Below are positions 14,808 to 49,862 of a DNA stretch of 64,000 nucleotides, piece by piece; position 1 is the stretch's first letter; every line of letters starts with the position of its first letter. The stretch covers positions 3,264,001 to 3,328,000 of the forward strand of contig CM000151.3 of NCBI GenBank assembly GCA_000004695.1. Reading direction: 5' to 3'. The position numbers and the translations under genes are program-made. The stretch is from Dictyostelium discoideum. Lineage: Eukaryota. The notes under the pieces were generated by a model. It searched no databases and was not told the DNA's origin. It was given only the letters and a program-made list of their open reading frames with translations.

Positions 14808-16823
14808 TTAATTTTTCATATATAACTCTTTGATTTTATAAAATAGTTCAGAGTCATTGACATCGTCTGGTAATTGATAGTTTGGATCATTTAATAAATT
14901 TGATAAAATTTGTCTTGGAATTTTACCAACTTTTGTTTTTGGTAATTGGTTAATAACTATTATTTTTTTTAAGACTGCCAGTGATTCAATATCTTGCGTG
15001 ATGATATTATTAATTTCATTTTGTAATTTATTTAAATCAATTGATGGATTTTCTTTTAATACCAATATACCAATCGGTGCAGTACGACAATCTGGACTTA
15101 AAATACCAATAGAACAACATTCTAAAACTGATGGATGTTTTAAAATTGATGTGTCAATTGTATTTAATTGAATTTTATTACAACTTATCTTAATTTGATC
15201 ATCTGATCTTGAAACAATTGTATAAAATCCTCTTTGATCTATATAACCTAAATCACCTGAATCATAGTAACCTGGAAACCTTGTAAATAGTTGTTTAAAC
15301 TTTTCATCATTTTTATAAAATGTAATTGCAAAACTGGGTGGCATTGGTAGTTTAAATGCAACTAAACCAATTTCATTTGAATTCAAAACTTCACCTTCTT
15401 CTGAAAGTATTGATGGTCTAATATAAATTGATGGTACGCCAGTGGCTCTATAAGGAATATTTAAAGCATGGACACTAATAAATGAAGTTACGCCAATTTC
15501 ACTTTGACCGTATACTCTTAAACATTTTATTTTTAACTTTTGTTCAATGTATTCTGGAATTGATTCTTCAATTACTTCACCGCCACACCATATTTCTTTT
15601 AAATTTGATAAATCATACTTAGAACGTACAATTGTTCCTTCAGGATCAGTTTTAATAAGGTATCTAAATACAGATGGGGATGGAAATGTATGTGTTACTT
15701 TATGTTTTACAATAGCTATCCATAAATCATCTTCTATATGTTCGTTTTTTATAATACCACCTTCATACATTACCAAGGTGTTTCCTCCAGATAATAAACC
15801 ATAAAAGAAACCATGAAATGATACCCACCCAATATTTGCATTTGAAAATACAATTTGAGGTATATCTGATTCTTTACGGAATGTATAGTATTTAATACCA
15901 ACCATATGCGGACCATTACTTCTTACAACAGCTTTGGTATTACCAGTTGTGCCACTTGTATAAAGTATATATAATGGATGACTTGATTCTACTGGTACAT
16001 ATTCATAAAATGGTGATTGATTATTTTCTTTTAATTTTTTAATTTCATCATACCAACTTAATGTATTTGGAATAGTTGGAATATTTTGAACTTTTTTTAA
16101 TTTTGTTTCATCCAAAACTTCATTTCTAAATAGAGTAATTACATTACTTGGTTTAAAAGTTGATAATTCAATTGCTTCTTTTAAATTTGGTGTAAATGTA
16201 ATGATTTCGTCATTAAAAATACCATAATTTGTTGTAATTATTAATTTTGGTGTAATTGTTTCGATTCTATCTATTAAACTTTTAACCGAATAACCATCGA
16301 ATAATGTACATTGAGTTGCACCAATACGAGCACATGATAACATTGCAATTAATGGTTCTAATGTATTTGCCATAAATATTAAAACATTATCATTTTTTGA
16401 AACATTTAAGTTTAAAAGAACTCTTGAAAATTTACATACTTTTTCATATAATTGATAATAGGTTAATTTAATTGTTTTCTTTAAATATGGACATTCATAA
16501 ATTAATGCATCTTGATCTCTTTTAGCAGGATTTTTAATATGAATGTCTAATAAATTATAACATGTATTTAATTCACCACCTTTAAACCAATCTGGATATA
16601 TTTCATCGCCACTATAAACTTTATCATACATTTTTTCCCTTTTATTTTTAAAAATCTTAGTTTTTGTTTTAATTTTAATATCTCTTTTTTAACAAAGAAA
16701 AAAAAAGATATATATTTACCAAAAAACATTCTTTTTAGCAACCTCATCCCAAAAAGCTTCTGGATTAGAATTTGAATAACTGTTATCATTTAAATAATCA
16801 AAAGGATCACTAAGTTTATACAT
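14808..16823 (-). CDS. Acetoacetyl-CoA synthetase-like AMP-binding enzyme, paralog A (2 exons)
   Basis: - Exon 2: 14808..16638, ORF of 607 aa.
- Exon 1: 16720..16823, MYKLSDPFDYLNDNSYSNSNPEAFWDEVAKKNVFW.
- Intron: 16639..16719 (GTAAAT...AG, phase 2), joining as W|EKMYDKVY.
- Motifs: PDWFKGGELN; P-loop YTSGTTGNTKAVVRSNG; YGQSEIG; FPGYYDSGD; SRSDDQIKI; A10 PKTKVGKIPR.
- Closest architecture is AACS (WFKG..LN, SSGTTGAPK, FSKFPG..GD). Confidence 0.85.
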
Positions 16824-19545: not shown

Positions 19546-21561
19546 TTAATTTTTCATATATAACTCTTTGATTTTATAAAATAGTTCAGAGTCATTGACA
19601 TCGTCTGGTAATTGATAGTTTGGATCATTTAATAAATTTGATAAAATTTGTCTTGGAATTTTACCAACTTTTGTTTTTGGTAATTGGTTAATAACTATTA
19701 TTTTTTTTAAGACTGCCAGTGATTCAATATCTTGCGTGATGATATTATTAATTTCATTTTGTAATTTATTTAAATCAATTGATGGATTTTCTTTTAATAC
19801 CAATATACCAATCGGTGCAGTATGGCAATCTGGACTTAAAATACCAATAGAACAACATTCTAAAACTGATGGATGTTTTAAAATTGATGTGTCAATTGTA
19901 TTTAATTGAATTTTATTAAAACCTATCTTAATTTGATCATCTGATCTTGAAACAATTGTATAAAATCCTCTTTGATCTTTATAACCTAAATCACCTGAAT
20001 CGTAGTAACCTGGAAATCTTGTAAATAGTTGTTTAAACTTTTCATCATTTTTATAAAATGTAATTGTAAAACTGGGAGGCATTGGTAGTTTAAATGCAAC
20101 TAAACCAATTTCATTTGAATTCAAAACTTCACCTTCTTCTGAAAGTATTGATGGTCTAATATAAATTGATGGTACGCCAGTGGCTCTATAAGGAATATTT
20201 AAAGCATGGACACTAATAAATGAAGTTACGCCAATTTCACTTTGACCAAATACTCTTAAACATTTTATTTTTAACTTTTGTTCAATATATTCTGGAATTG
20301 ATTCTTCAATTACTTCACCACCACACCATATTTCTTTTAAATTTGATAAATCATACTTAGAACGTACAATTGTTCCTTCAGGATCAGTTTTAATAAGGTA
20401 TCTAAATACAGATGGGGATGGAAACGTATGTGTTACTTTATGTTTTACAATAGCTATCCATAAATCATCTTCCATATGTTTGTTTTTTATAATACCACCT
20501 TCATACATTACCAAGGTGTTTCCTCCAGATAATAAACCATAAAAGAAACCATGAAATGATACCCACCCAATATTTGTATGTGAAAATACAATTTGAGGTA
20601 TATCTGATTCTTTACGGAATGTATAGTATTTAATACCAACCATATGCGGACCATTACTTCTTACAACAGCTTTGGTATTACCAGTTGTGCCACTTGTATA
20701 AAGTATATATAATGGATGACTTGATTCTACTGGTACATATTCATAAAATGGTGATTGATTATTTTCTTTTAATTTTTTAATTTCATCATACCAACTTAAT
20801 GTATTTGGAATAGTTGGAATAGTTTGAACTTTTTTTAATTTTGTTTCATCCAAAACTTCATTTCTAAATAAAGTTATTACATTACTTGGTTTAAAAGTTG
20901 ATAATTCAATTGCTTCTTTTAAATTTGGTGTAAATGTAATGATTTCGTCATTTAAAATACCATAATTTGTTGTAATTATTAATTTTGGTGTAATTGTTTC
21001 GATTCTATCTATTAAACTTTTAACCGAAGAACCATCGAATAATGTACATTGAGTTGCACCAATACGAGCACATGATAACATTGCAATCAATGGTTCTAAT
21101 GTATTTGCCATAAATATTAAAACATTATCATTTTTTGAAACATTTAAATTTAAAAGTACTCTTGAAAATTCACATACTTTTTCATATAATTGATAATATG
21201 TTAATTTAATTGTTTTCTTTAAAAATGGACATTCATAAATTAATGCATCTTGATCTCTTTTAGCAGGATTTTTAATATGAATATCTAATAAATTATAACA
21301 TGTATTTAATTCACCACCTTTAAACCAATCTGGATATATTTCATCGCCACTATAAACTTTATCATACATTTTATCCCTTTTATTTTTAAAAATCTTAGTT
21401 TTTGTTTTAATTTTAATATCTCTTTTTTAACAAAGAAAAAAAAAGATATATATTTACCAAAAAACATTCTTTTTAGCAACCTCATCCCAAAAAGCTTCTG
21501 GATTAGACTTTGAATAACTATTATCATTTAAATAATCAAAAGGATCACTAAGTTTATACAT
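19546..21561 (-). CDS. AACS-like AMP-binding enzyme, paralog B (2 exons); recent duplicate of A
   Basis: - Exon 2: 19546..21376 (607 aa).
- Exon 1: 21458..21561, MYKLSDPFDYLNDNSYSKSNPEAFWDEVAKKNVFW.
- Intron: 21377..21457.
- About 14 aa differences from A (about 97.7% identity).
- Same motif set as A. Confidence 0.85.
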
Positions 21562-22263: not shown

Positions 22264-24281
22264 CTATAAATTTTTCATATATAATTCTTTGATTTCATAA
22301 AATATTTCAGTGTCACTGACATTATGGGGTAGTTGATAATTTGAATCATTTAATAAATTTGACAAAATTAGTCTTGGAATTTTACCAACTTTTGTTTTTG
22401 GTAATTGGTTAACAATTAAAATTTTTCTTAAGACTGCACATGATTCAATATCTTGTGTAATGATATTATTAATTTCATTTTGTAATTTAATTAAATCAAT
22501 TGATTGATTTTCTTTTAATACTAATACACCAATTGGTACACTACGAATAACTGGATCATAAATACCAATCGAACAACATTCTAAAACTGATGGGTGTTTT
22601 AAAATTGACGTTTCAATTGTATTTAATTGAACTTTTTTATAACCGATTTTAATTTGATCATCTGATCTCGAAACAATTGTATAAAATCCTCTTTGATCTT
22701 TATAACCTAAATCACCGGTATTATAATAACCTGGGAATTTAGAAAATAATTGTTTAAACTTTTCATCATTTTTATAATATGTAGTTGCAAAACCTGGTGG
22801 CATTGGTAGTTTAATTGCAACAAAACCAATTTCATTTGAATTCAAAACTTTACCTTCTTCTGAAAGTATTGATGGTTTTATGAAAATTGATGGTATGCCA
22901 GTGGCTTTATAAGGCATATTTAAAGCATGAACACTAATAAATGAAGTTATGCCAATTTCACTTTGACCAAATACTCTTAAACATTTTATTTTTAACTTTT
23001 GTTCAATGTATTCTGGAATTGATTCTTCAATTACTTCACTACCACACCATATTTCTTCTAAATTTGATAAATCATACTTTGAACTGATGATTTTTCCTTC
23101 AGGATCAGTTTTAATAAGGTATCTAAATACAGATGGGGATGGAAATGTATGTGTTACTTTATGTTTTACAATTGTTTTCCATAAATCATCTTCAATATGT
23201 TTGTTATTTATAATACCACCTTCATACATTACAAATGTATTCCCTACAGATAGTAAACCATAAAAGAAACCGTGAAATGATACCCACCCAATATTTGAAT
23301 ATGAAAATACAATTTGAGGTATATCTGATTCTTTACGGAATCTATAATATCTAATACTAACCAAATGTGGACCATTACTTCTAACAACAGCTTTAGCATT
23401 ACCAGTTGTACCACTTGTATATAGTATATATAATGAATGACTTGATTCTACTGGTACATATTCATAAAATGGTGATTGATTATTTTCTTTAAGTTTTTTA
23501 ATTTCATCATACCAACTTAATGTATTTGGTATCGTTGGTATATCATTTACTTTTTTTAAATTTGTTTCATCCAAAACTTCATTTCTAAATAAAGTTATTA
23601 CATTACTTGGTTTAAAAGTTGATAATTCAATTGCTTCTTTTAAATTTGGTGTAAATGTAATGATTTCATCATTTGATATACCATAGTTTGTTGTAATTAT
23701 TAATTCTGGTGTAATTGTTTCGATTCTATCTATTAAACTTTTAACTGAATAACCATCGATTATTGTACAATGAGTTGCGCCAATACGAGCACATGATAAC
23801 ATTGCAATTAATGGTTCTAATGTATTTGACATATAAATTAAAACAACATCATTTTTTGAAACATTTAAATTTAAAAGTACTCTTGAAAATTCACATACTT
23901 TTTCATATAATTGATAATATGTTAATTTCTCAGTTTTCTTTAAAAATGGACATTCATAAATTATTGCATCTTGATCTCTTTTAGTAGGATTTTTTGTATG
24001 AATGTCTAATAAATTATAACATGTATTTAATTCACCACCTTTAAACCAATCTGGATAAATTTCATCACCACTATAAACTTTATCATACATTTTATCCCTT
24101 TATTTTAAAAATATTAGTTTTTGTTTTAATATTAAAATCTCTTTTTTTATAAAGAAAAAAAAAAAAGATATATTTACCAAAAAACATGCTTTTTTGCCAC
24201 TTCATCCCAAAAATCCTCAGGATAAGAATTTGCATAATTACTGTCATTTACATAATTAAAAGGATCACTAAGCTTATACAT
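22264..24281 (-). CDS. AACS-like AMP-binding enzyme, paralog C (2 exons)
   Basis: - Exon 2: 22264..24097 (608 aa).
- Exon 1: 24178..24281, MYKLSDPFNYVNDSNYANSYPEDFWDEVAKKHVFW.
- Intron: 24098..24177.
- P-loop GNAKAVV; A10 PKTKVGKIPR. Confidence 0.85.
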
Positions 24282-24753: not shown

Positions 24754-26290
24754 TCATATATAATTCTTTAATTTCATAAAATATTTCAATGTCAATGATA
24801 TTATCTGGAAATTGAAAATTTGAATCATTAAAAACTTTGGTCTTGGAGTTTTACCAGCTTTGGTTTTTGGTAATTGATTAACAACTACAATTTTTCTCAA
24901 GACTGCTAACGATTCAATATCTTGTGTAATGATATTATTAATTTCAGATTGTAATTTATTTAAATCAATTGAGTTGATTGATCTTGTTTTTGCTTTAAAA
25001 CTTTTTTTCAATGTATTCTGGGATTGATTCTTCAATTACTTCACCTCCAACCATAAATTCTTTTAAATTTGATAAACCATACTTTGAACGTATAATTGTT
25101 CCTTCAGGATCAGTTTTAATAAAGTATCTAATAGTGCTTGCCAATGACAATGCATGTGTCACTTTATGTTTTTCAATGGTATTCCAAAAGTCAACTTCAA
25201 TATATTTGTTTTTTATAATACCACCTTCATACATTATAAATGTAGATCCAGATGACAACAAGCCTTATAGGGAACCATGAAATGATATCCATCCGACATT
25301 TGAAAATGTAAATAATTTTATATTTTCATATTTTTCTGAAATATATCTGTTAAAGTAATTCATACAAACTAAATTTGGACCATTACTTCTTACAACTGCT
25401 TTAGCATTACCAGTTGTACCACTTGAATAAATAATATATAGTGGATGACTTGATTCTACTGGTACATATTCATAAAATGGTGATTGATTATTTTCTTTAA
25501 GTTTTTTATTTTCATCATACCAACTTAATGTATTTGGTATCGTTGGTATATCTTTTACTTTCTTTAAATCTGATTCGCTTGTAATATCATTTCTAAATAA
25601 AGTAATTACATTACTTGGTTTAAAAGTTGATAATTCAATAGATTCTTTTAAATTTGTGATGAAATTAATGATTCCATCATTAAAAATACCATAGTTTGTT
25701 GTAATTATTAATTTTGGTGTAATTGTTTCAATTCTATCTATTAAACTTTTAACTGAATAACCATCGAATAATACACAATGAGTTGCACCATTATGAGTAC
25801 ATGATAAAATTGCAATTGGTGCTTCAACCGTATTTGCCATATATATTAAAACATTATCATTTTTTGAAATATTTAAATTTAAAAGTACTCTTGAAAATTC
25901 ACATACTTTTTCATATAATTGATGATATGTTAATTTTACAGTTTTCTTTAAATATGGACATTCATAAATTAATGCATCTTGATCTCTTTTTAATGGATTT
26001 TGAACTTGTTTATCTTTATTTTTAGACTTGTTTCATATAAATTATAACATGTATTTAATTCACCCTTTAAACCAATCTGGATACATTTCATCACCACTAT
26101 AAACTTTATCATACATTTTATCCCTTTTAAAAATATTAGTTTTTGTTTATATTTTTTATATAAAGAAAAAAATGTATTATCTTACCAAAAAACATTCTTT
26201 TTTGCAACTTCATCCCAAAAAGCCTCAGGAAAAGAATTTGCATAATTGAAATCATTTAAATTATTAAAAGGATCACTAAGTTTAAACATT
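24754..26290 (-). pseudogene. AACS-like pseudogene D: multiple frameshifts and an internal deletion
   Basis: - The homologous reading frame is split across ORFs 24754..25035, 24995..25261 and 25265..25840.
- Further frameshifted N-terminal pieces run to ~26110. One example is 'ccctttaaaccaatctgg', which lacks 2 nt relative to the 'ccacctttaaaccaatctgg' of intact copies.
- An exon-1-like segment survives at ~26185..26290 (MFKLSDPFNNLNDFNYANSFPEAFWDEVAKKNVFW).
- About 140 codons of the middle are missing. Confidence 0.8.
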
Positions 26291-26881: not shown

Positions 26882-28902
26882 TTAATTTTTCATATATAAT
26901 TCTTTGATTTCATAAAATATTTCAACGTTATTGACATTATCAGGTAATTGAAAATTCGAGTCATTTAAAAACTTTGATATAATTGGTCTTGGAATTTTAC
27001 CAGTTTTTGTTTTTGGTAATTGATTAACGATTACAATTTTTCTTAAGACCGCTAATGATTCAATATCTTGTTTAATTATATAATTTATTTCATTTTGTAA
27101 TTTATTTAAATCAATTTGTTGAATTGATTGATCTTGTTGTTGTAGTTGTTTTAAAACCAATAAGGCTATTGGTACACTATAACAAGTTGGATCGTTAATA
27201 CCAATTGAACAACATTCTAAAACTAATGGATGTTTTAGTATTGATGTTTCAATTGTATTTAATTGAACTTTATTACCACTGATTTTAATTTGATCATCTG
27301 ATCTTGAAACAATTGTATAGAATCCATTTTCATCTTTAAAACCTAAATCACCAGGATTGTAGTAACCTGGAAATTTTGAAAATAATTGTTTAAACTTTTC
27401 ATCATTTTTATATAATGTAGTTGCAAAACTTGGTGGCATTGGTAATTTAAATGCGATTTCACCAATTTCGTTAACACCTAATTCTTTACCATCGTCTGAA
27501 AATATTGATGGTCTAATGAAAATTGATGGTAAACCAGTTGCGTAGTATGGGATATTAATATGATCAAAACAATATAAATAAGCTATACCAATTTCAGTTT
27601 GACCATATCCCCTTGTTGGTTTTATTTTTAACTTTTTTTCAATGTATTCTGGGATTGATTCTTCAATTACTTCACCTCCGACCCATATTTCTTTTAAATT
27701 TGATAAATCATACTTTGAACGTATAATTGTTCCTTCAGGATCAGTTTTAATAAAGTATCTAATAGTGTTTGCCAATGATAATGTATGTGTCGCTTTATGT
27801 TTTTCAATGGTATTCCAAAAGTCAACTTCAATATGTTTGTTTTTAATAATACCACCTTCATACATTACAAATGTAGATCCAAATGACAACATACCATATA
27901 GGAAACCATGAAATGATACCCATCCGACACTTGAAGTTGTCAATAATGTTGTACATTCATATTTTTCTGAAATATATCTGTCAAAGTAATTCATACAAAC
28001 TAAATTTGGACCATTACTTCTTACAACTGCTTTAGCATTACCAGTTGTACCACTTGAATAAATAATATATAGTGGATGACTTGATTCTACTGGAACATAT
28101 TCATAAAATGGTGATTGATTATTTTCCTTGAATTTTTTAATTTCATCATACCAACTTAATGTATTTGGTATCGTTGGTATATCTTTTACTTTCTTTAAAT
28201 CTGATTCGCTTGTAATATCATTTCTAAATAAAGTAATTACATTACTTGGTTTAAAAGTTGATAATTCAATTGCATCTTTTAAATTTGGTGTAAATGTAAT
28301 AATTTCATCATTAAAAATACCATAGTTTGTTGTAATTATTAATTTTGGTGTAATTGTTTCAATTCTATCTATTAAACTTTTAACTGAATAACCATCGAAT
28401 AATACACAATGAGTTGCACCAATACGAGCACATGATAACATTGCAATTAATGGTTCTAAAGTATTTGCCATATAAATTAAAACATTATCATTTTTTGAAA
28501 TATTTAAATTTAAAAGTACTCTTGAAAATTCACATACTTTTTCATATAATTGATAATATGTTAATTTTATAGTTTTCTTTAAATATGGACATTCATAAAT
28601 TAAAGCGTCTTGATCTCTTTTTAATGGATTTTGAACTTGAATATCTAAAACATTATAACATGTATTTAATTCACCACCTTTAAACCAATCTGGATACATT
28701 TCATCACCACTATAAACTTTATCATACATTTTATCCCTTTTAAATATATTAGTTTTTGTTTTTAATTTTTTTTTTTGTAGAAAAATGGATTATCTTACCA
28801 AAAAACATTCTTTTTTGCAACTTCATCCCAAAAAGCCTCAGGATAAGAATTTGCATAATTAAAATCATTTAAATAATTAAAAGGATTACTAAGTTTAAAC
28901 AT
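26882..28902 (-). CDS. AACS-like AMP-binding enzyme, paralog E (2 exons)
   Basis: - Exon 2: 26882..28736 (615 aa).
- Exon 1: 28799..28902, MFKLSNPFNYLNDFNYANSYPEAFWDEVAKKNVFW.
- P-loop YSSGTTGNAKAVV.
- Q-rich insert LKQLQQQDQSIQQIDLNKL before the A10 motif PKTKTGKIPR. Confidence 0.85.
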
Positions 28903-29183: not shown

Positions 29184-31234
29184 CTAATTAATTTTCGTAT
29201 ATAATTCTTTGATTTCATAAAATATTTCAACATTACTGATGTTATCGGGTAATAGAAAATTTGAATCATTTAAAAACTTTGATATAATTGGTCTTGGAAT
29301 TTTACCAGTTTTTGTTTTTGGTAATTGATTAACAATTACAATTTTTCTTAAGACTGCTAATGATGCAATATCTTGTGTAATGATATTATTAATTTCAGAG
29401 TGTAATTTATTTAAATCTATTTGTCGAGTTGACTGATCTTGTTGCTGTTGTTGTTGTTGTTTTAAAACTAATAAGGCTATTGGTACACTATAACAAGTTG
29501 GATCGTTAATACCAATTGAACAACATTCTAAAACTGATGGATGTTTTAGTATTGATGTTTCAATTGTATTTAATTGAACTTTATTACCACTGATTTTAAT
29601 TTGATCATCTGATCTTGAAACAATTGTATAAAATCCATTTTCATCTTTAAAACCTAAATCACCAGGATTGTAGTAACCTGGAAATTTTGAAAATAATTGT
29701 TTAAACTTTTCATCATTTTTATAAAATGTAGTTGCAAAACTTGGTGGCATTGGTAATTTGAATGCGATTTCACCAATTTCGTTAACACCTAATTCTTTAC
29801 CATCGTCTGAAAATATTGATGGTCTAATGAAAATTGATGGTAAACCAGTTGCGTAGTATGGGATATTAATATGACCAAAACAATATAAATAAGTTATACC
29901 AATTTCAGTTTGACCATATCCCCTTGTTGATTTTATTTTTAACTTTTGTTCAATGTATTCTGAAATTGATTCTTCAATTGGTTCACCACCAATCCATATT
30001 TCTTTTAAATTTGATAAATCATACTTTGAACGAAGGATTGTTCCTTCAGGATCAGTTTTAATAAGGTATCTAATAGCGCTTGCCAATGATAATGCATGTG
30101 TTACTTTATGTTTTTCAATGGTATTCCAAAGGTCAACTTCAATATGTTTATTTTTTATAATACCACCTTCATACATTACAAATGTAGATCCAAATGACAA
30201 CATACCATATAGGAAACCATGAAATGATACCCATCCAACACTTGAAGTTGTCAATAATGTTGTACTTTGATTATTTTCTGAAATATATCGGTTAAAGTAA
30301 TTCAAACAAACCATATGTGAACCATTACTTCTTACAACTGCTTTAGAATTTCCAGTTGTACCACTTGTATATATTATGTATAATGGATGACTTGATTCTA
30401 CTGGAACATATTCATAAAATGGTGATTGATTATTTTCCTTGAATTTTTTAATTTCATCATACCAACTTAATGTATTTGGTATCGTTGGTATATCTTTTAC
30501 TTTCTTTAAATCTGATTCGCTTGTAATATCATTTCTAAATAAAGTAATTACATTACTTGGTTTAAAAGTTGATTGTTCAATTGCATCTTTTAAATTTGGT
30601 GTAAATGTAATGATTTCATCATTTAATATACCATAGTTTGTTGTAATTATTAATTTTGGTGTAATTGTTTCAATTCTATCTATTAAACTTTTAACCGAAT
30701 AACCATCGAATATTGTGCAATGAGTTGCACCAATACGAGCACATGATAACATTGCAATTAAAGGCTCCAATGTATTTGCCATATAAATTAAAACATTATC
30801 ATTTTTTGAAATATTTAAATTTAAAAGTACTCTTGAAAATTCACATACTTTTTCATATAATTGATAATATGTTAATTTAACAGTTTTCTTTAAATATGGA
30901 CATTCATAAATTAAAGCATCTTGATCTCTTTTTAATGGATTTTGAACTTGTCTATCTAAAACATTATAACATGTATTTAATTCACCACCTTTAAACCAAT
31001 CTGGATACATTTCATCACCACTATAAACTTTATCATACATTTTATCCCTTTTTTATTTTATTTTAAAAAAAAAAATTGTTATTTTAATTAGTAATTATTA
31101 ATATATAAAAAAAAATAAACAAATAATTACCATTTAATTAATTTCTTTGCAACTTCATCCCAAAAAGCTTCTGGCTCATTATTTGCATAAGTTTTATCAT
31201 TTAAATAATCAAATGGTTCGCTTAGTCTATACAT
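29184..31234 (-). CDS. AACS-like AMP-binding enzyme, paralog F (2 exons)
   Basis: - Exon 2: 29184..31047 (618 aa).
- Exon 1: 31131..31234, MYRLSEPFDYLNDKTYANNEPEAFWDEVAKKLIKW.
- Intron: 31048..31130 (donor GTAATT).
- P-loop GNSKAVV.
- Poly-Q insert (QQQQQQQDQSTRQIDLNKL). Confidence 0.85.
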
Positions 31235-31330: not shown

Positions 31331-31589
31331 AATAATAAAAAAAATGATATGTGATATTAATAAAATAAAATTAAAAATAACTAATAAATTTTATAGTATC
31401 ATTAATTGATCCAATAATTATTATTATTATTACTATTTACAAAACAAATATAAAAAAAGTCTGAATAATAACCACTGACACCCACATACACTGAAAAATA
31501 CAGAAATAGAAATAATAATTTAATAATAATTTTAATTGAAAAAAAAAAACAAACACATACCCAAAAATTCAAACTGTTTTATTTATAAA

Positions 31590-33967
31590 AGATTCTTTAA
31601 TTTCTAAAAATAATTCATAGTCATTAATATTACTTGGCAAAACAAAATTGATATCATTTAATAATTTTGATAATATTGATCTTGTATTTTTTCCACTTTT
31701 TGTCTTTGGTATTTTCTTAACAACTATTATTCTTCTTAATATTGATGATTATCAATATCATTTGAAATTATCATATTTATTTCTTTTTCTAATTCTTTTA
31801 ATTCAATTGGATTATTATTTTGATTATTTTGATTATTTTGATTATTTTGATTATTTTGATTATTTAATATTAGAATACCAATTGGTACAGTCAAGAATTC
31901 TACATCTTTAATACCAATACAACAACATTCTAAAACCAATGGATGTTTTAAAACTGAAATTTCAATTGTATTTAATTGTACTTTATTTGATTTAATTTTT
32001 ATTTGATCATCTGATCTTGAAACGATTGTAAAATTATTATCTTGGTCTTTAAATGCCAAATCACCTGAAAAATAATAATAACCTTTTTCCATATTCAATA
32101 AATTTGTTTTGAATAATTTTTTAAATTGTTCATTATTTTTATAAAAGGTTAATGCAAATCCAGGTGGTAAAGGTAATTTAAATACCAACTCTCCAATTTC
32201 ATTTTTATTTAATGATTTTTTACCACTACTCGTACCACTATCACTACCACTACTACTACCACTACAAACACTATTACCACCACCAACATCACTATTATTA
32301 TAACAAACTTCCTCTTCTTCTTCTTCAGAGAGTATGAATGATTTTAAAGAAGGAGTTGGCTGACCAATTACCATTATATTACCTCTACCACTACTACTAC
32401 CACTACCACTACCACTACCACTACCACTACCACTACCACTACCACAACCACTACCACTACCACTACCACTACCACTACCACTACCACTACCACTACCACT
32501 ACCACTACCACTACTGTTACTATTACTGCTAACATTGGATCTGTTTGATTTTTTAAAATCAAATAAATATATATTACCAGTTTCAGTTTGACCATATATA
32601 TTTGAAGCAGATTTTTTTAATTTGTTTTCAATATAATTTGCAACTGATTTTTCAACTACATCAGCACCAACTAAAATTGTATTTAAACTTGATAAATTAT
32701 AATTTGATAATATAAACTCTGCATTTGGGTCATCTTTAATTAAAAGTCTAATTGATTTAGGACCAATAAAAAATTTGTTTACCTTATGTTTTTCAATAAC
32801 TTTCCAAAGTTGATACTTGATTTGATTTAATTCACAAATTCCACCTTCAAACATTATAAAAATATTCCCTGTTGATAATAATGAATATAGAAAACCATGA
32901 AATGTTACCCAACCAATACTTGAATGTGAAAAGAATTTAATTAAATCTGAATTAGTATTATTATTATTAACTTCATCATTTAAAAACATACATCTACATG
33001 TATATTTAACACCAACTAAATGTGGACCATTACTTCTTACAACTGCTTTAGCGTTACCAGTTGTACCACTTGTATATAGAATATATAATGGATGACTTGA
33101 ATCTACTGGTATATAATCATAAAATGGTGATTGATTATTTTCTTTGAATTTTTTAATTTCATCATACCAACTTAATGTATTTGGTATCGTTGGTATTGTT
33201 TCAATTATTGTTTTTAAAGTTAAATTTGCATTATAATCACCATCATCTCTATTATGTATAATTATATGATTTGGTTTAAAATTTGATTGTTCAATTGCTT
33301 CTTTTAAATTTGGTGTAAATGTAATAATTTCATCATTTGAAATACCATAATTTGTTGTGATAATCAATTTTGGTGTAATTGTTTCAATTCGATCTATTAA
33401 ACTTTTAACTGAATAACCATCAAATAATGTACAATAAGTTGCACCAATACGAGCACATGATAACATTGCAATTGGTGCTTCAACTGTATTTGCCATATAA
33501 ATTATAACGTTATCATTTTTTGAAACATTTAAATTTAAAAGTGCTCTTGAAAATTCACATACTTTTTCATATAATTGATAGTATGTTAGTTTAATTGTTT
33601 TCTTTAAAAATGGACATTCATAAATTAATGCATCTTGATCTCTTTTTGCAGGATTTTTAATATGAATATCTAAAACGTTATAACATGTATTTAATTCACC
33701 ACCTTTAAACCAATCTGGATAAATTTCATCACCACTATAAACTTTATCATACATTCTATCCCTTTTTTTTTATTATTATTTAAAATTTTAAATTGTATGT
33801 GTTAAAAAATTATTTTATTTAAAAATACTTTTAAAAATTATAAAATTGTTACTGAATACAAACCAATGAACGAAATTCTTAGCAACTTCATCCCAAAATT
33901 CTATTGGTTGGTTATTTGAAAAGCTGAAGTCTTTGTCATAATTAAATGGTTCACTTAATCTATTCAT
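31590..33967 (-). CDS. AACS-like paralog G with large low-complexity insertions and an apparent 1-nt frameshift near the C-terminus (possible pseudogene)
   Basis: - Exon 2 ORF 31736..33761 (672 aa); exon 1 33864..33967, MNRLSEPFNYDKDFSFSNNQPIEFWDEVAKNFVHW.
- An (ACCACT)n hexanucleotide array at 32390-32520 encodes an (SG)n run of about 60 aa inside the core domain.
- A 9-mer 'gattatttt' x5 at 31800-31860 encodes a (QNN)n repeat.
- The ORF stops at 'NDIDNHQY*', but the conserved C-terminus (...SSILRRIIVVKKIPKTKSGK...NDYELFLEIKESFINKTV*) continues in another frame to ~31590. That implies a 1-nt indel near 31755. Confidence 0.6.
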
Positions 33968-36431: not shown

Positions 36432-37293
36432 ATGTCATATTACAAAGATGAAATTTTAAACTCTTTAAATTTATCAGATTTTTGTTATGAAAAAGATGAT
36501 TCAACAATAATTAAAAAATTTAATGAAAATTTTGAAACTCATGATATTGAAAGAGTAATTAGAGGTGAGATTGAATGTAGTGGTCAAGTTTTTATAATTG
36601 GATATCGTGAAAAAGATATTAATAATAATAGTGAATTTAAAAGAAGGAATACCTATTATGTATCATTTAGAGGTACAGAATTTAATTTTAGTGATATTAC
36701 AACCGATTTAAATAGTATTAAAGAATTTAAAGAAAAACAAGGTACATATCATAAAGGATTTCTTAAAAGGACAATAGGATTTCCAATTCAAATTATAATT
36801 CAATGGTTAGAGAATGGTGATAATGTAATATTCTCAGGACATAGTTTAGGTGGATCAGTATCACAAATTTTAACAATATCTATAATTTTACAAATATCAA
36901 AAAATAAACTTGAAACCATTTTAAAAAATTCACAAATTCTATGTATTACATTTGGGTCACCATTAATTGGAAATACTGATTTATTAAAAACATTAGAAGA
37001 TAATCAAATTTTAAATTATAATATATTTCATTCAATTATTCATAGAAATGATCCAATACCAAAATTGCAAGGTTTAAATAATTTTGTTAATAATAATATG
37101 TTATCAATTGCAAAGAATACAATTTGTTGGTTATTTGAATTTGATAGAATTAAAATTGATGGAATTATAAATTCATTTTATCAAACATTATCAGAATCTT
37201 CAAAATCTAGTTTAAATTCAAAATTTAATTTTATGGCAGATTTAAATTCAGTAATTGGTTTATATCATATCATTCAACATGATTTATATATTG

Positions 37294-37376
<83 letters not shown>

Positions 37377-37880
37377 TATAGTTTTATAAAATCATTATGC
37401 CATAAAAATGATTTAAATGAATTAAATGAATTTTTTAAATTTAATCATGAAAATTTCTCAAAAATTCTATTTCATAAATTATCAACTTATAGAGATATTT
37501 TGATTTATGAATTAATAACATCAAAAGTATTAAAAAATTCAACAACAACAACAACAATAATATCAAATAAAGTAAAACCAATGGTAGATTTAATTCCTAT
37601 TATTAAAAGTGTTTCAATTAACAAAAGTAATAAAAAAAATGAATTGATTACAATTGTTGGTGAAAATTTATGTTTTATTTCTATAAATACATTGAAATTA
37701 ATTTATAGTGATGGAACAAAGGATATTTTATTGAAATCAATAATTCAAAAGAGTAATAATCAAATTGTTATTGACGCTACTGACATACCAACTGGCAATT
37801 TAAAATCACTTCAATTTAAATCAAATTTTAAATATAATAACACAAGTAGTAATAATGAAATTTATTTACAACAAATTTAA
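36432..37880 (+). CDS. Class-3 (fungal-type) lipase domain protein (482 aa) with internal poly-N tract
   Basis: ATG at 36432. Lipase_3 signatures are 'YVSFRGTEFNFSDITTDL' (RGT motif) and the nucleophile elbow 'FSGHSLGGSV' (GHSLGG). A 32-residue poly-N run is encoded by (AAT)n at 37300-37375. Confidence 0.8.
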
Positions 37881-38299: not shown

Positions 38300-38893
38300 A
38301 TGAAATTTTTTATTTTAATTTTTATTTGTTTAATGGTTACAACATATGTTTTTGGATTTAAATATACAAAAATTGAAGTCCATAATTTATATGATGACAA
38401 TTGTTCATTGCAACCCTATGAAATTGTTTATCAATTAAATGGATGGTGCGTAGATGGTAATACTAATATCGAATGTAACGAAGATGGAACAGTGATTACA
38501 CAAAATGTTTTTGGTACTAATAGTGGTTGTAAAGGTGCAAAAACAGGTAATATTACAAATGCCAGTGGTACATGTGCATTTGAGAATGTAGTTTATTCAT
38601 GTGTTGATGATTTCGAAATTCCTGAAAATACATTAGTCAGTGTAGTTACAAATGGTAAATGTGAAAATGATCCAAGTTGGAAAGATGATATTGGTTTAAT
38701 TGGTTATGAATACTTGAATCAATGTATTCAAAATTATAAAGGTGCTTTTGAATTAACTTGTAATTCTTCAATTCCATATAAAAATATTTACAATTCCACA
38801 AGTGTTTGTAATACTGTTCCAACTGGTTATGGATGGTTTAGTCCAAATGAATGTTCAAAAAATGATCCAACTTTTTACTATTGTAATGTTTAA
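38300..38893 (+). CDS. Small secreted Cys-rich protein (197 aa), unknown function
   Basis: ATG at 38300. It has an N-terminal signal peptide (MKFFILIFICLMVTTYVFG) and at least 14 Cys residues in a pattern suggesting disulfide-rich extracellular domains. No recognised family. Confidence 0.6.
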   Translation: MKFFILIFICLMVTTYVFGFKYTKIEVHNLYDDNCSLQPYEIVYQLNGWCVDGNTNIECNEDGTVITQNVFGTNSGCKGAKTGNITNASGTCAFENVVYSCVDDFEIPENTLVSVVTNGKCENDPSWKDDIGLIGYEYLNQCIQNYKGAFELTCNSSIPYKNIYNSTSVCNTVPTGYGWFSPNECSKNDPTFYYCNV

Positions 38894-39395: not shown

Positions 39396-40331
<936 letters not shown>

Positions 40332-40774: not shown

Positions 40775-42775
40775 ATGTATAAGTTTAATTATGAAAATGA
40801 TATTGATTTTGCAAATAACCAACCAATAGAATTTTGGGATGAAGTTGCAAAGGATTTAGTTCATTGGTAAGTTTTTTTTATTTTTCTAAATTGTCTTGAC
40901 AAAAAACTAATAATTTAAAAATAAAAGGGATAAAATGTATGAAAAAGTTTATAGTGATGATGAAATATATCCAGATTGGTTTAAAGGTGGTGAATTAAAT
41001 ACATGTTATAATGTTTTAGATATTCATATTAAAAATCCAGAAACAAGAGATCAAGATGCATTAATTTATGAATGTCCATATTTAAAGAAAACTGTAAAAT
41101 TAACTTATTATCAATTATATGAAAAAGTATGTGAATTTTCAAGAGTACTTTTAAATTTAAATATATCAAAAAATGATAATGTTTTAATTTATATGTCAAA
41201 TACATTAGAACCATTAATTGCAATGTTATCATGTGCTCGTATTGGTGCAACTCATTGTGTGTTATTCGATGGTTATTCAGTTAAAAGTTTAATAGATAGA
41301 ATTGAAACAATTACACCAAAATTAATAATTACAACAAATTATGGTATTTTTAATGATGAAATTATTAATTTCATACCAAATTTAAAAGAATCAATTGAAT
41401 TATCAACTTTTAAACCAAGTAATGTAATTACTTTATTTAGAAATGATATTACAAGCGAATCAGATTTAAAGAAAGTAAATGATATACCAACGATACCAAA
41501 TACATTAAGTTGGTATGATGAAATTAAAAAATTCAAAGAAAATAATCAATTACCATTTTATGAATATGTACCAGTAGAATCAAGTCATCCATTATATATA
41601 CTATATACAAGTGGTACAACTGGTAATTCTAAAGGGGCTGTTAGAAGTAATGGTCCACATTTAGTTGGTATTAAATATCAAACATTGATACAAAAGGGTA
41701 AAACAAAAGTAGTATTTTATCATACAAGTGTTGGGTGGATATCAATTCATAATGCTTTTAATGGTTTATTATCACTTGGATATACATTGGTTATGTTTGA
41801 AGGTGGGCTTACTAAAACAAAACATATGGAAGATGATATTTGGGAAGTTATTGAAAGAAATAAAGTAACTTGTGCATCCATAATGGCTAAAGCAATTAGA
41901 TACTTAATTAAAGTTGATCCTGAATGTAAAAATTTACATTCAAAGTATGATTTATCAAATTTAAAAGAAATAATAGTTGGTGGAGAACCAATTGAAGAAT
42001 CAATTCCAAATTATATTCAAGAGAAATTAAAAGTAAAGTCAATTCGTGTATACGGTCAAACTGAAACTGGAGCATGTTATTTTTATTGTTATGATTATAA
42101 AAATTTAAAAATTCCTATTAACACAAGTGGCTTTCCATTTTCATCTTTAAAAGCAATGATTTTTTCAGATGATGGCAAAGAATTAGGTGTTAATGAAATT
42201 GGAGAGCTTGTATTTAAATTACCATTACCACCAAGTTTTGCAACTACATTTTATAAAAATGATGAAAAGTTTAAACAATTATTTACAAAATTCCCAGGTT
42301 ACTATAACCCTGGTGATTTAGGATTTAAAGATGAAAATAATTGTTATGGTGTTGTTTCAAGATCAGATGATCAAATTAAAATCAGTGGTAATAAAGTTCA
42401 ATTAAATAAAATTGAAACATCAATTTTAAAACATCCATTAGTTTTAGAATGTTGTTCAATAGGTATTTATAATCCAGATTGTTATAATGTACCAATAGCT
42501 TTTTTAGTTTTAAAACAACAAGAAGATCAATCAATTCAACAAATTGATTTAAATAAATTACAATCTGAAATTAATATAATCATTTCAAAAGATATAGAAA
42601 ATTTTGCAATTTTAAGAAAAACTTTAATAGTTACACAAATACCGAAAACCAAAGCTGGTAAAATTCAAAGACAAATCATTTCTAAATATTTAAATGATAT
42701 AAATTATGAATTACCAGATAATGTTTGTGATGTTGAAATCTTTTATAAAATCAAGGATTTATATAATAATGTTAA

Positions 42776-43265: not shown

Positions 43266-43761
43266 AATTAAATTAATAATAATAATAATAATAAATAATA
43301 ATAATAATAATAAATAATAATAATAATAATAATAATAAAAATAAAAATAGCTAGTAATAATAAAATAAAAATATTTAAATTATATCTTATACACCCCAAT
43401 TTGTAATTCATCTTTATTTTTTTATTTTATCTTATTGGTTCAAAATTTAAATAAAGATAAGATACATAATAAAATTTTTTAAAAAATTAAATACATGTTA
43501 TAATGTTTTAGATATTCATATGAAAAATCCATTAAAAATAGATCAAGATGCATTAATTTATGAATGTCCGTATTAAAGTTTTTTTTTTTCAATGTTTTTG
43601 AACCAATAGGATAATATTAATTATTACAAATATATGTAAAAAAAGGTTATAAATCCCATACCCAATTTGTTAATTGTTTTAAACTTTTTTTTTTTTATGT
43701 ACCATTATTTTTTTTTTTATTATTATTTTATTTTATTAATATCGTTTAATTTAATAAAAAA

Positions 43762-45770
43762 ATGTATAAATTTAACTATGAAAATGAAATTGATTTAGCA
43801 AATAACAGACCAATAGAATTTTGGGATGAAGTTGCAAAGGATTTAGTTTATTGGTAAGTTTTTATTTCTTTTTTTTATTTTTTCAATTGTCATTGCAAAA
43901 AACTAATAATTTAAAATTAAAAAAAAAGGGATAGAATGTATGATAAAGTTTATAGTGGTGATGAAATTTATCCAGATTGGTTTAAAGGTGGTGAATTAAA
44001 TACATGTTATAATGTTTTAGATATTCATATAAAAAATCCAGAAACAAGAGATCAAACTGCATTAATTTATGAATGTCCATTTTTAAACAAAAATATAAAA
44101 TTAACCTATTATCAATTTTATGAAAAAGTATGTGAATTTTCAAGAGTACTTTTAAATTTAAATATATCAAAAAATGATAATGTTTTAATTTATATGTCAA
44201 ATACAATTGAAGCACCAATTGCAATGTTATCATGTGCTCGTATTGGTGCAACTCATTGTGTGTTATTCGATGGTTATTCAGTTAAAAGTTTAATAGATAG
44301 AATTGAAACAATTACACCAAAATTAATAATTACAACAAATTATGGTATTTTTAATGATGAAATTATTACATTTACACCAAATTTAAAAGATGCAATTGAA
44401 TTATCAACTTTTAAACCAAGTAATGTAATTACTTTATTTAGAAATGATATTACAAGCGAATCAGATTTAAAGAAAGTAAATGATATACCAACGATACCAA
44501 ATACATTAAGTTGGTATGATGAAATTAAAAAATTCAAAGAAATTAATCAATTACCATTTTATGAATATGTTCCAGTAGAATCAAGTCATCCATTATATAT
44601 AATATATACAAGTGGCACAACTGGTAGTGCTAAAGCAGTTGTTAGAAGTAATGGTCCATATATGGTAGGTATTAAATATCAAACATTGATACAAAAGGGT
44701 AAAATAAAAGTTGTGTTTTCTCATACAAGTATTGGCTGGGTATCATTTCATAATCTATTATATGGTTTATTTTCAGTTGGATATACATTAGTTATGTCTG
44801 AAGGAGGAGTGACAAAACCAAAACATATGGAAGATGATATTTGGGAAATTATTGAAAGAAATGAAGTAAGTTGTGCATTCACAATGGCTAAAGCAATTAG
44901 ATACTTAATTAAAGTTGATCCTGATTGTAAAAATTTACATTCAAAGTATGATTTATCTAATTTAAAAGAAATGGTACTTGGTGGAGAACCAATTGAAGAA
45001 TCAATTTCAAATTATATTCAGGAGAAATTAAAAGTTCAATCAACTCGTGTATATGGTCAAACTGAAACAGGTGTCGTTTATTTTTAGGTTTTGATAATAA
45101 AAATTTAAAAATTCCAATTAATACATGTGGAGTTTCATTTCCATCTTTAAAAGCAAAGGTTTTTTCAGATGATGGTAAGGAATTACCTTTGTATGAAATT
45201 GGTGAGCTTGTATTTAAATTACCTTTACCACCAGGTTTTACAACTACATTTTATAAAAATGATGAAAAGTTTAAACAATTATTTACAAAATTTCCAGGTT
45301 ACTATTACCCTGGTGATTTAGGATTTAAAGATGAAAATAATTGTTATGGTGTTGTTTCAAGATCAGATGATCAAATTAAAATCAGTGGTAATAAAGTTCA
45401 ATTAAATAAAATTGAAACATCAATTTTAAAACATCCATTAGTTTTAGAATGTTGTTCAATAGGTATTAATAATCCAGATTGTTATAATGTACCAATTGGT
45501 ATATTAGTTTTAAAACAACAAGAAGAAAATCAATCAATTCGACAAATTGATTTAAATAAATTACAATCTGAAATTAATACAATAATATCAAAGGATATAG
45601 AAAATTTTGCAATTTTAAGAAAAATTTTAATAGTTCCACAATTACCAAAAACTAAAGTTGGTAAAACTCAAAGACAAATCATTTCTAAATATTTAAATGA
45701 TACAAATTTTCAATTACCAGATAATGTTTGTGATGTTGAAATCTTTTATAAAATTAAAGATTTATAATAA
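43762..45770 (+). pseudogene. AACS-like pseudogene I (duplicate of H) with in-frame TAG and frameshift
   Basis: - Exon 1 (43762..43853) and its intron are intact.
- Exon 2 from 43929 reads through to 'YGQTETGVVYF*' at 45087. There H has 'tatttttattgttatgattat', I has 'tatttttaggttttgataat': a TAG plus a 1-nt deletion.
- The homologous C-terminus continues in another frame (ORF 45189..45767).
- An orphan fragment of the AACS N-terminus (NTCYNVLDIHMKNPLKIDQDALIYECPY*) also sits at 43470-43570. Confidence 0.75.
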
Positions 45771-46728: not shown

Positions 46729-48764
46729 ATGTATACATTAAGCCAACCATTCAATTATGAAAATGATTATAAATTCTCAATAAACACCGACCCAATTTCA
46801 TTTTGGGATCAAGTAGCCACTAAATATGTTTATTGGTATGCATACAATAAAAAAAAACATAATTAGTTAAATAAATAATTAAATTTTTTATAAATATAAT
46901 TTAAAAATAAAAAAGGGATAAAATGTATGATAAAGTTTATAGTGGTAATGAAATTTATCCAGATTGGTTTAAAGGTGGTGAATTAAATACATGTTATAAT
47001 TTATTAGATAGACAAGTTCAGAATCCATTAAAAAAAGATCAAGTTGCATTAATTTATGAATGTCCATATTTAAAGAAAACTGTAAAATTAACTTATTATC
47101 AATTATATGAAAAAGTATGTGAATTTTCAAGAGTACTTTTGAATTTAAATGTTTCAAAAAATGATAATGTTTTAATTTATATGGCAAATACAGTTGAAGC
47201 ACCAATTGCAATGTTATCATGTGCTCGTATTGGTGCAACTCATTGTGCTTTATTCGATGGTTATTCAGTTAAAAGTTTAATAGATAGAATTGAAACAATT
47301 ACACCAAAATTAATAATTACAACAAATTTGGGAGTTGGACTTGATGAAATTGTTGATATTACTACAAATTTAAAAGAAGCAATTGAATTATCAACTTTTA
47401 AGCCTGACAATGTAATAACACTTTATAGAAATGATATTGTTTATAATAATAATAATTTCCAAACAATAATACCAAATTCATTAAATTGGGAAGAAGAAAT
47501 TAAAAAAATTAAAATTAATAATCAATCACCATTTTATGATTATGTACCAGTAGAATCAAGTCATCCAATCTATTTAATTTATACAAGTGGTACAACTGGT
47601 AATTCTAAACCAGTTGTAAGAAGTAATGGTAGTAATTTGGTTGGACTTTTATATCATTGGAATTGTTTAAGTTCAAAGGTTAATAATGATGAAAATGTAG
47701 TTTTATTTTCTGCAACTAGTGTTGGATGGGTGTCATTCCATATGTTCTTTTATGCATCATTATCAAAAGGAAATACATTTGTAATGTTTGAAGGTGGTTT
47801 CTTAAAACAAAATAATGTTGAAGATGACATTTGGGCAACCATTGAAAAACATAATGTAAACATTTATTTAGCATTACCAATTGTAATGAGATATCTTAAG
47901 AAAATGGATCCCAATGCTGAAAGATTACATTCAAAATATGATATATCACGTTTAAAGCAAGTTTGGATTGGTGCTGAAGTTATTGAAAAATCAATTCAAG
48001 ATTATATTGAAAATAAATTAAATGCTGAATCAATTGGTTTATATGGTCAAACTGAAAGTGGAATGATGTATATTTATGAATATTCAAGTATAAATAAAAC
48101 ATATGATACAGTAGGTATACCATCACCATTTATTAAACCATCAATATTATCTGAAGATGGTAAAGAGTTGGGTGTTAATGAAATTGGTGAATTCTCTCTC
48201 AAATTACCATTACCACCTGGATTTGCGACTACATTTTATAAAAATGATGAACAATATAAAAAATTATTTTCAAAATTTCCAGGTTATTATAATTCTGGTG
48301 ATTTAGGTTATAAAGATGAAAATGGATATTATGGTATTGTTTCAAGAGCTGATGATCAAATTAAAATTAGTGGTAATAAAGTTCAACTAAATACAATTGA
48401 ATCATCAATTTTGAAACATCCAAATGTTATTGAATGTTGTTCAATTGGTATTAATGATTATGATTGTTATAAAGCACCAATTGGTATATTGGTTTTAAAA
48501 AAACAAGATTCAATTTTAGATTTCAATCAATTAAAAAATGAAATTAATAATATTATTAATGATGATATTGAAAGTTATGCTGAACTAAAACAAATTATCA
48601 TTGTAAATCAATTACCAAAAACTAAAAGTGGTAAAATTCAAAGACATATACTTTCTAATTATTTAAATAACAATAATTTTAAATTACCAGATAATATTGA
48701 AAATCTTCAATTATTTTATAACATAAAAGATTCTTTTATTAAAAACTCAAATAAAAATATTTAA
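46729..48764 (+). CDS. AACS-like AMP-binding enzyme, paralog J (2 exons), most divergent intact copy
   Basis: - Exon 1: 46729..46835, MYTLSQPFNYENDYKFSINTDPISFWDQVATKYVYW.
- Intron: 46836..46915 (GTATGC...AAAAG).
- Exon 2: 46916..48764 (613 aa).
- P-loop YTSGTTGNSKPVV; YGQTESG; A10 PKTKSGKIQR. Confidence 0.85.
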
Positions 48765-49339: not shown

Positions 49340-49700
49340 ATGTTTAAATTAAGTGATCCTTTTGATTATGAAAATGATTACAATTTCTCTCAAATTAATC
49401 CAATTTAATTTTGGGACGAAGCTCACTGGTATGCACTTCACAAAAAAAAAAAAAAAAAAAAAAAAAAACAAATTTTAACATATAATAAATAAAAAAAAAA
49501 AAAAAAAGGGATAAAATGTATGATAAAGTTTATAGTGGTGATGAAATTTATCCAGATTGGTTTAAAGGTGGTGAATTAAATACATGTTATAATTTAATAG
49601 ATATTCATATTAAAAATCCATTAAAAAGAGAATAAGATGTATTAATTTATGAATGTCCATTTTTAAAGAAAACAATTAAAAGAGTTTCAGACCAATTTTT
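49340..49700 (+). pseudogene. Truncated AACS-like gene fragment K (exon 1 + first ~55 codons of exon 2, with stop)
   Basis: - 'atgtttaaattaagtgatccttttgattatgaaaatgattacaatttctctcaaattaatccaatttaattttggga': an in-frame TAA sits in the exon-1-like part.
- After an intron-like segment comes 'MYDKVYSGDEIYPDWFKGGELNTCYNLIDIHIKNPLKRE*'.
- Homology is lost after ~49700. Confidence 0.75.
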
Positions 49701-49862
49701 TTCTTTTTTAAATTTGCTGATTAATTTTTATTAAGATTTTTTGACAAAAAAAAAAAAAAAAATCTTCGATAAAATAAAAAAAAAAAAAAAAAAGATTAAT
49801 AAACTTTTTTTTTTTTTTTTTTTTTTTTTAATTTTATTTTATTAAAATAATTTTGGAAAAAA

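Follow-up and report, generated by a model that had tools for sequence, protein, structure and literature searches.

A P-loop without its proline in a tandem array of adenylate-forming enzyme genes of Dictyostelium discoideum

The 64,000-nucleotide stretch of Dictyostelium discoideum DNA analyzed here (assembly GCA_000004695.1, contig CM000151.3, positions 3,264,001 to 3,328,000 of the forward strand; hereafter the window) has a G+C content of about 22% and includes a tandem array of 11 copies of a gene for an adenylate-forming enzyme. The array belongs to chromosome 2 of strain AX4 and comprises DDB_G0273365, DDB_G0273229, DDB_G0273305, DDB_G0273215, DDB_G0273211 and others. None of the copies has the proline of the canonical G-x-P-K-G sequence of the A3 motif, or P-loop; in DDB_G0273365, where the motif lies in exon 2, this Pro is replaced by Thr and the canonical Gly after the Lys by Ala. 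With some reservation, we favor the view that this substitution affects the structural half of the P-loop and is tolerated and subject to drift, in a recently amplified family of PrpE-derived synthetases that had already acquired a new function when it arose.

A six-frame scan of the window found 11 copies of the loop, those in damaged genes included, and all of them fit G-[N/S]-[T/A/S]-K-[A/G/P]. The forms are GNTKA (two copies), GNAKA (four), GNSKA (one), GNSKG (two), GNSKP (one) and GSAKA (one). A sequence-only reading of this DNA had given the consensus as YTSGTTG-N-[T/A/S]-K-[A/G/P]-VVRSNG, with the Pro lost throughout. The loss is confirmed in 11/11 copies and the consensus stands overall, with small deviations: YSSGTTG in two copies, KGAVRSNG at the end in one, and Ser for Asn (GSAK) only in the frameshift-split copy at 43771-45767. 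Variants also occur among the copies at A10 (PKTKAGK) and A5 (FGQSEIG and YGQTESG). The strict signature [ST]-[ST]-G-[ST]-[ST]-G-x-P-K-G, which includes the Pro, is matched by no copy. The PROSITE pattern PS00455, which we take to permit [PASLIVM] at the Pro position, is matched in that form by 7/9 copies, both GNTK copies failing. Identity between copies is 64-98%, which is homology and not chance, and a shared loop is therefore expected by descent. The difference from the parent family is beyond that expectation: the Pro is found in 0/11 copies but in 132/132 bacterial PrpE-like proteins with a recognizable loop.

The Pro is also present in 94 of the 96 single-domain representatives of a library made at 50% identity, and in 211/215 adenylation domains of nonribosomal peptide synthetases. 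A survey of the superfamily reported conservation of 88% for the loop Pro and 97% for the loop Lys (PMC6122825), so natural members without the Pro do exist. The two exceptions in the library, GKSKG (P0270) and GKAKP (P0315), are isolated sequences, unlike the state fixed in several species that is found in the array clade, and P0315 has lost the catalytic lysine that the array clade keeps. This protein, from the millipede Chamberlinius hualienensis and annotated as mitochondrial ACSS3, acquired its Pro-less loop independently and reads TSSSKLAR, with no A10 lysine. Another oddity in the representative library is P0302, a 1019-amino acid homolog of acetyl-coenzyme A (CoA) synthetase (ACS) with an insert of about 390 residues inside the P-loop, between TSG and TTGMPKG; the insert starts with Cys, ends with His-Asn and is intein-like in appearance.

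Among dictyostelids, the Pro is found in none of the 44 array-clade proteins, which come from D. discoideum strains, D. citrinum, D. dimigraforme and D. firmibasis, and in every homolog examined outside the clade. The closest of the latter, D. purpureum 92742 (DICPUDRAFT_92742, 46-47% identity), has GKPKG. The others read SKPKG (D. purpureum 80061), GEPKG (83657 and 154330 of the same species), NKPKA (75854, also D. purpureum), GNPKG and SQPKG (Polysphondylium violaceum CYY_003942 and CYY_007104, respectively), and GNPKC and GTPKC (the D. firmibasis out-paralogs 002871 and 009636, respectively). The suggestion that the loop is specific to this lineage thus agrees with the dictyostelid alignment, in which no homolog outside the clade carries it. 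Little weight attaches to the Asn, which had been taken as a replacement of the first basic or small residue of the loop. The x position is freely variable in the PrpE set (K 87, I 14, M 13, Q 8, with L, E, T and H among the others), and GNPKG, in which Asn stands beside a retained Pro, occurs in several relatives; the Asn was accordingly dropped as a residue of special interest. The segment that follows the Lys is also remodeled in the array: its Gly, found in 100% of the PrpE set, is A, G or P (a change of G to A/P), and GG becomes G[P/S].

The array clade and a clade of paralogs on chromosome 1 are together monophyletic in 100% of neighbor-joining bootstraps, the source of all tree support given here, and D. 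purpureum 92742 is their sister in 98%. The simplest reading of these sequences is a single ancestral loss of the Pro, which would have occurred after the D. purpureum split and before the tandem expansion; conservation of the loop across the whole array is therefore ascribed to one event plus inheritance. Pseudogene copies carry the same loop, and its presence in every copy thus reflects descent. Within the 44 array-clade proteins the loop residues S, G, T, G, K and R are invariant. The former Pro site is occupied by S in 29 proteins, A in 8, C in 3, T in 2, and V and Y in one each, which places it in the 79th percentile of per-site entropy, and the former Gly site (A 26, G 10, P 7, S 1) is in the 75th percentile. 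The codons at the former Pro site in the window are ACC, GCT, TCT and TCA, and in each of them a change of the first base alone would give CCN.

The chromosome-1 paralogs (DDB_G0267544, DDB_G0268272 and orthologs) have the loops KPKS, KSKS or IAKS. Their subclade is nested within the Pro-less clade, with a GNSKA protein of D. firmibasis as its sister in 100% of bootstraps, and monophyly of the main array is supported in only 0-3%. A placement of the KPKS paralogs as a basal sister group that had simply kept the Pro was considered and rejected, as it has the same 0-3%. The Pro was probably regained in this subclade, or else it was lost several times, and in either case the site toggles. The high variability of the former Pro and Gly sites, the renewed presence of Pro in a nested subclade and the failure of any other alignment column to track it point to what would be two formerly invariant positions under relaxed constraint, not a newly optimized motif. 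The earlier idea of a conserved special ATP-binding loop does not fit with two sites that are so variable within the clade. The proteins of DDB_G0267544 and DDB_G0268272 (P0046 and P0048) also have PISMGGK or PISINGK at A10 in place of PKTKSGK, and in one chromosome-1 paralog the P-loop reads TSGTTAKPKS, with Ala for the second Gly.

Proteins encoded by the array include the Pfam domains ACAS_N, AMP-binding and AMP-binding_C. Intact copies score 159-195 bits with PF00501 (cut-off 29.9) and 47-62 bits with PF13193 (cut-off 24.5), which places them in the ANL superfamily. ACAS_N (PF16177) scores 28.3-30 bits, above its cut-off of 27; the match in the open reading frame (ORF) begins only at profile position 29, a short upstream exon encoding the first 34-35 residues. 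DDB_G0273211, which is 100% identical to an ORF of the window, was the query for the homology searches and for the structure model. The closest solved relative is the PrpE of Dinoroseobacter shibae (5gxd, 310 bits), with ACS next (about 246 bits), while acetoacetyl-CoA synthetase (AACS; 4wd1) reaches 80 bits. Among NCBIfam models those for acetate- and propionate-CoA ligases rank first, although every score is far under the curated cut-off: 309-354 versus 955 for NF007815 and 266-306 versus 827 for TIGR02316 (both PrpE), and 316-342 versus 725 for TIGR02188 (AcsA). The AACS models score lower still, with 145-150 versus 521 (TIGR01217) and 174-183 versus 639 (NF002937). On these comparisons the array genes are diverged relatives of the PrpE/ACS type and not AACS genes. 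The two groups share the superfamily and the type of N-terminal extension, but the scores rule out the AACS identity that the sequence-only reading had assigned.

The protein of D. shibae is the best match in structure as well as in sequence, and PrpE/ACSS3-type enzymes share with the array the layout of ACAS_N, AMP-binding and AMP-binding_C, the segment VVR.NG.H after the loop, and the A5 Glu, A7 Asp, A8 Arg and A10 Lys. Identity is nevertheless only 31-38%. GxPKG of PrpE corresponds to GN[SAT]K[AGP] in the array, WWQTE to YGQ[ST]E, A-G-E to G-G-E, and GHRLSTG to GNK[VI]QLN, with loss of the Arg equivalent to R584; overall, the array departs from bacterial PrpE in about 100 columns where conservation in the latter is 97% or more. 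The P-loop change is therefore one part of a broad divergence. The AlphaFold model of DDB_G0273211 has a predicted local distance difference test score (pLDDT) of 91.1, with 77 for the block that includes the P-loop, and a predicted template modeling score (pTM) of 0.91. Superposed on structures of ACS in the adenylation conformation, it gives root mean square deviations of 2.7-3.7 Å; it is ligand-free and does not decide any question about the loop. After the dictyostelid proteins, the next-best matches listed are propionyl-CoA synthetases from bacteria or unlabeled metagenomes (35-38% identity), with no named eukaryotic ACSS3 among them, which may reflect database composition only.

The acyl pocket has changed as well, and this is the change that tells most about the enzymes. 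The gatekeeper motif WWQTE is Y/F-G-Q-S/T-E in the array, with Gly at the position of Salmonella Acs Trp414 in 8/8 intact copies. PrpE A-G-E (V-G-E in ACS) is G-G-E, so that the position of Acs Val386 is Gly, and GWVVGHS is GWVSFH. AMP-forming ACSs (Salmonella Acs 1pg4, yeast ACS1 1ry2, Cryptococcus Acs1 5k8f) have the same fold, core motifs and A10 lysine as the array proteins, and differ in these acetate-pocket residues (Trp414 to Gly, Val386 to Gly, and GW-V-T-GH to GW-V-S-F-H). Trp414 is a signature of short-chain enzymes, and Gly occupies the position in 93% of the other superfamily members (PMC6122825); a Trp-to-Gly change allows the Acs of M. thermautotrophicus to take branched acids and chains as long as seven carbons (PMC8383264). 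The array thus lacks the gatekeeper Trp of enzymes for acetate and propionate. Since both this Trp and the neighboring Ala/Val are Gly, the enzymes are predicted to use carboxylic acids that exceed acetate and propionate in size. YGQ[ST]E, which the sequence-only reading had listed among the motifs kept, is thus an altered motif and would be evidence against the use of acetate or propionate, and specificity for acetoacetate is unsupported. In functional terms the pocket change is larger than that of the loop.

The Acs-type arginines that contact the phosphate of CoA are not conserved in the array either, the R584 equivalent being T, K, S or N and the R526 equivalent K. These arginines have that role in Acs, and the active enzyme MacsMa, which has Lys at both positions, binds CoA differently (PMC10455477). 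MacsMa (Methanosarcina acetivorans, 3etc) is related to Acs and uses larger and branched acids (PMC8383264, PMC10455477). Like the array proteins it has Gly for the gatekeeper Trp and Lys at the R526 equivalent, and it can be considered their functional analog, although it is only a distant sequence relative (97 bits over residues 206-577); no evidence was found that the changes in MacsMa and the array share descent. CoA as the thiol acceptor is the default inference for the array enzymes. The pocket and CoA-site changes are common to D. purpureum 92742 and D. firmibasis 002871, which makes the loss of the Pro the most recent layer of change. The YKP of PrpE is FTP in the array and, like the other CoA-site changes, in D. 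purpureum 92742.

The A5 Glu, A7 Asp, A8 Arg and A10 Lys, which are 100% conserved in the ANL superfamily (PMC6122825), are present in 8/8 intact copies. Retention of the A10 Lys and of the Asp of the A7 GD motif had been claimed before, and a search of the alignment for loss of the lysine gave nothing. Pairwise ratios of nonsynonymous to synonymous substitution (dN/dS, Nei-Gojobori) are between 0.25 and 0.59 in all 28 pairs, with 0.25 for the youngest, and selection on the copies appears to be purifying and fairly relaxed. Multi-copy sets on single contigs are found in four species, D. discoideum, D. citrinum, D. dimigraforme and D. firmibasis. We infer that the intact copies are still active enzymes, which use ATP to adenylate the acid and then transfer the acyl moiety to a thiol, CoA being the most likely one.

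The reading we favor can be put as follows. The adenylate-forming enzymes of the array would be a young clade that arose within the propionyl-/acetyl-CoA synthetase lineage and expanded by tandem duplication. The change of G-x-P-K-G to G-N-[S/A/T]-K-[A/G/P] would have taken place once, in the ancestor of the clade, and been inherited by every copy; later the former Pro and Gly would have drifted among small residues, with one daughter clade going back to Pro, while the phosphate-contacting part (S-G-T-T-G and the Lys) and the other catalytic residues stayed invariant. The loop would then represent relaxed constraint on a permissive background and no precisely tuned new ATP site. Several observations weigh against this reading. 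The Pro168Ala mutant of 4-chlorobenzoate:CoA ligase has no detectable activity (PMC6122825, Table 2), so loss of the Pro is not generally neutral and should need compensation, and no column that compensates or co-varies with the presence of Pro was found in the alignment, where the signal was limited to the column of the Pro itself and to two others that were weak and non-exclusive. Asn is kept at the x position in 40/44 array-clade proteins, and Pro is found in 0/44 although one nucleotide change restores it, which could mean that Pro is now disfavored. The upper end of the dN/dS range, the 3/11 damaged copies and the roughly 100 altered PrpE columns leave room for reduced or altered activity, the tree depends on neighbor-joining throughout, and a search of the available literature library for the array loci found no publication and no biochemical or expression data.

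Some of these points would be expected if the loss of a rigid Pro and of the Gly after the Lys had altered ATP binding or pyrophosphate release, through affinity, nucleotide preference or the rate of domain alternation, and had been selected as one element of the function newly acquired by the expanded family, along the lines that the sequence-only reading suggested. The absence of an easily restored Pro from the array clade in four species, the persistence of the Asn, the coincidence of the loop change with the tandem expansion and the remodeled segment after the Lys all agree with such adaptive re-tuning, and the inactive ligase mutant shows that the residue matters mechanistically. We nonetheless consider re-tuning unlikely, as the altered positions are among the most variable of the protein, with six different residues at the former Pro site, Pro is present again in a nested subclade, no partner site co-varies, and pseudogenes have the same loop. 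More doubtful still is the possibility of an array whose members are weakly active, inactive or pseudoenzymes and turn over by duplication and loss. The damaged copies and two gene fragments, the relaxed dN/dS values, the many changed PrpE columns, the substituted equivalents of R584 and R526 (roles in PMC10455477) and the inactivating Pro-to-Ala mutation are all compatible with decay. Against it, dN/dS is below 1 in all pairs and lowest in the youngest, eight copies have kept all the universal catalytic residues as well as the phosphate-contacting part of the loop, multi-copy sets persist in four species, MacsMa is active with Lys at both arginine positions, and the model folds confidently.

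There is also a small chance that the array encodes recently diversified activating enzymes for medium-chain, branched or aromatic acids in which the flexible Pro-less loop and the loss of the CoA arginines amount to a real mechanistic shift. If so, the enzymes could provide starter units for Dictyostelium polyketide and other secondary metabolism or handle acids from bacterial prey, and the shift would consist of altered ATP/pyrophosphate kinetics or of an acceptor other than free CoA. With drift of a tolerated substitution as the preferred reading, the array can be seen as a natural experiment, a family that lacks the Pro, has freely varied the site and shows Pro again in one branch, as opposed to 4-chlorobenzoate:CoA ligase, in which the change to Ala is inactivating. 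It could reveal sequence backgrounds that make the P-loop proline dispensable, which would be useful for the engineering of adenylation enzymes. The D. discoideum array genes should not carry acetoacetyl-, acetyl- or propionyl-CoA synthetase names. For the enzyme class, which is well understood, this is a lineage-specific variant that leaves that understanding unchanged.

The array consists of two divergently oriented sub-arrays, one of seven copies on the minus strand (14.8-34.0 kb) and one of four copies on the plus strand (40.8-51.9 kb). Eight of the 11 copies are intact and the three damaged ones all retain the loop (Table 1).

Table 1. Genes, motifs and neighbors of the array (positions are those of the window)
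Feature	Position	Strand	P-loop	P-loop position	Remarks
DDB_G0273365	14808-16823	-	GNTKA	15930-15959	644 amino acids; exon 1 16719-16823, intron 16638-16718 (81 nt), exon 2 14808-16637
A3/P-loop motif of DDB_G0273365	15912-15962	-			YTSGTTGNTKAVVRSNG
A3/P-loop region of DDB_G0273365	15900-15965	-			LYTSGTTGNTKAVVRSNGPHMV, frame-0 translation of the reverse complement
A4 pocket of DDB_G0273365	15810-15833	-			IGWVSFHG
CGGEV of DDB_G0273365	15573-15587	-			equivalent of Acs V386 is Gly
A5 of DDB_G0273365	15492-15512	-			YGQSEIG
A7 of DDB_G0273365	15243-15269	-			GD
A8 of DDB_G0273365	15174-15212	-
A10 of DDB_G0273365	14913-14942	-			PKTKVGKIPR
DDB_G0273229	19546-21561	-	GNTKA	20668-20697	paralog
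DDB_G0273305	22264-24281	-	GNAKA	23389-23418	paralog
Decayed pseudogene copy	24755-26286	-	GNAKA	25397-25426	internal stops and internal deletion
Intact paralog	26882-28899	-	YSSGTTGNAKA	28028-28057
Intact paralog	29184-31228	-	GNSKA	30339-30368
Most divergent copy	31581-33961	-	GNAKA	33044-33073	damaged
Class-3 lipase	36432-37880				between sub-arrays
Counting-factor-associated CfaA/B/C family protein	38300-38893				between sub-arrays
HPP-family membrane protein	39396-40331				between sub-arrays
DDB_G0273215	40775-42779	+	GNSKGA	41607-41636	paralog; A10 PKTKAGK
Second N-terminal fragment	43484-43573	+			30 amino acids
Frameshift-split copy	43771-45767	+	GSAKA	44608-44637	break just after A5; ORFs 43936-45087 and 45189-45767
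Intact paralog	46738-48764	+	GNSKP	47583-47612
N-terminal fragment of a further copy	49343-49728	+			about 110 amino acids; no P-loop
DDB_G0273211	49863-51894	+	GNSKG	50734-50763	646 amino acids; exon 1 49863-49964, exon 2 50056-51894

The database protein of DDB_G0273365 (P0034) is identical to the translation of the window. This gene and DDB_G0273229 encode proteins that are 98% identical, with a synonymous divergence (dS) of 0.04, and the duplication of the unit of about 4.7 kb that generated them must therefore be very recent; both have Gln instead of the His that is invariant in the ARIGATHC segment of PrpE. The most divergent copy has a long Ser/Gly-rich low-complexity insert between A5 and A6 and a frameshift in its 3' part ahead of A10, with IPKTKSGK readable in another frame. 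The N-terminal fragments that lie between intact genes are debris of array turnover. The three genes located between the sub-arrays are unrelated to the array enzymes, and they were left aside as a functional clue because in eukaryotes the order of genes is a weak indication; the class-3 lipase that adjoins acyl-activating enzymes is suggestive, if unproven.

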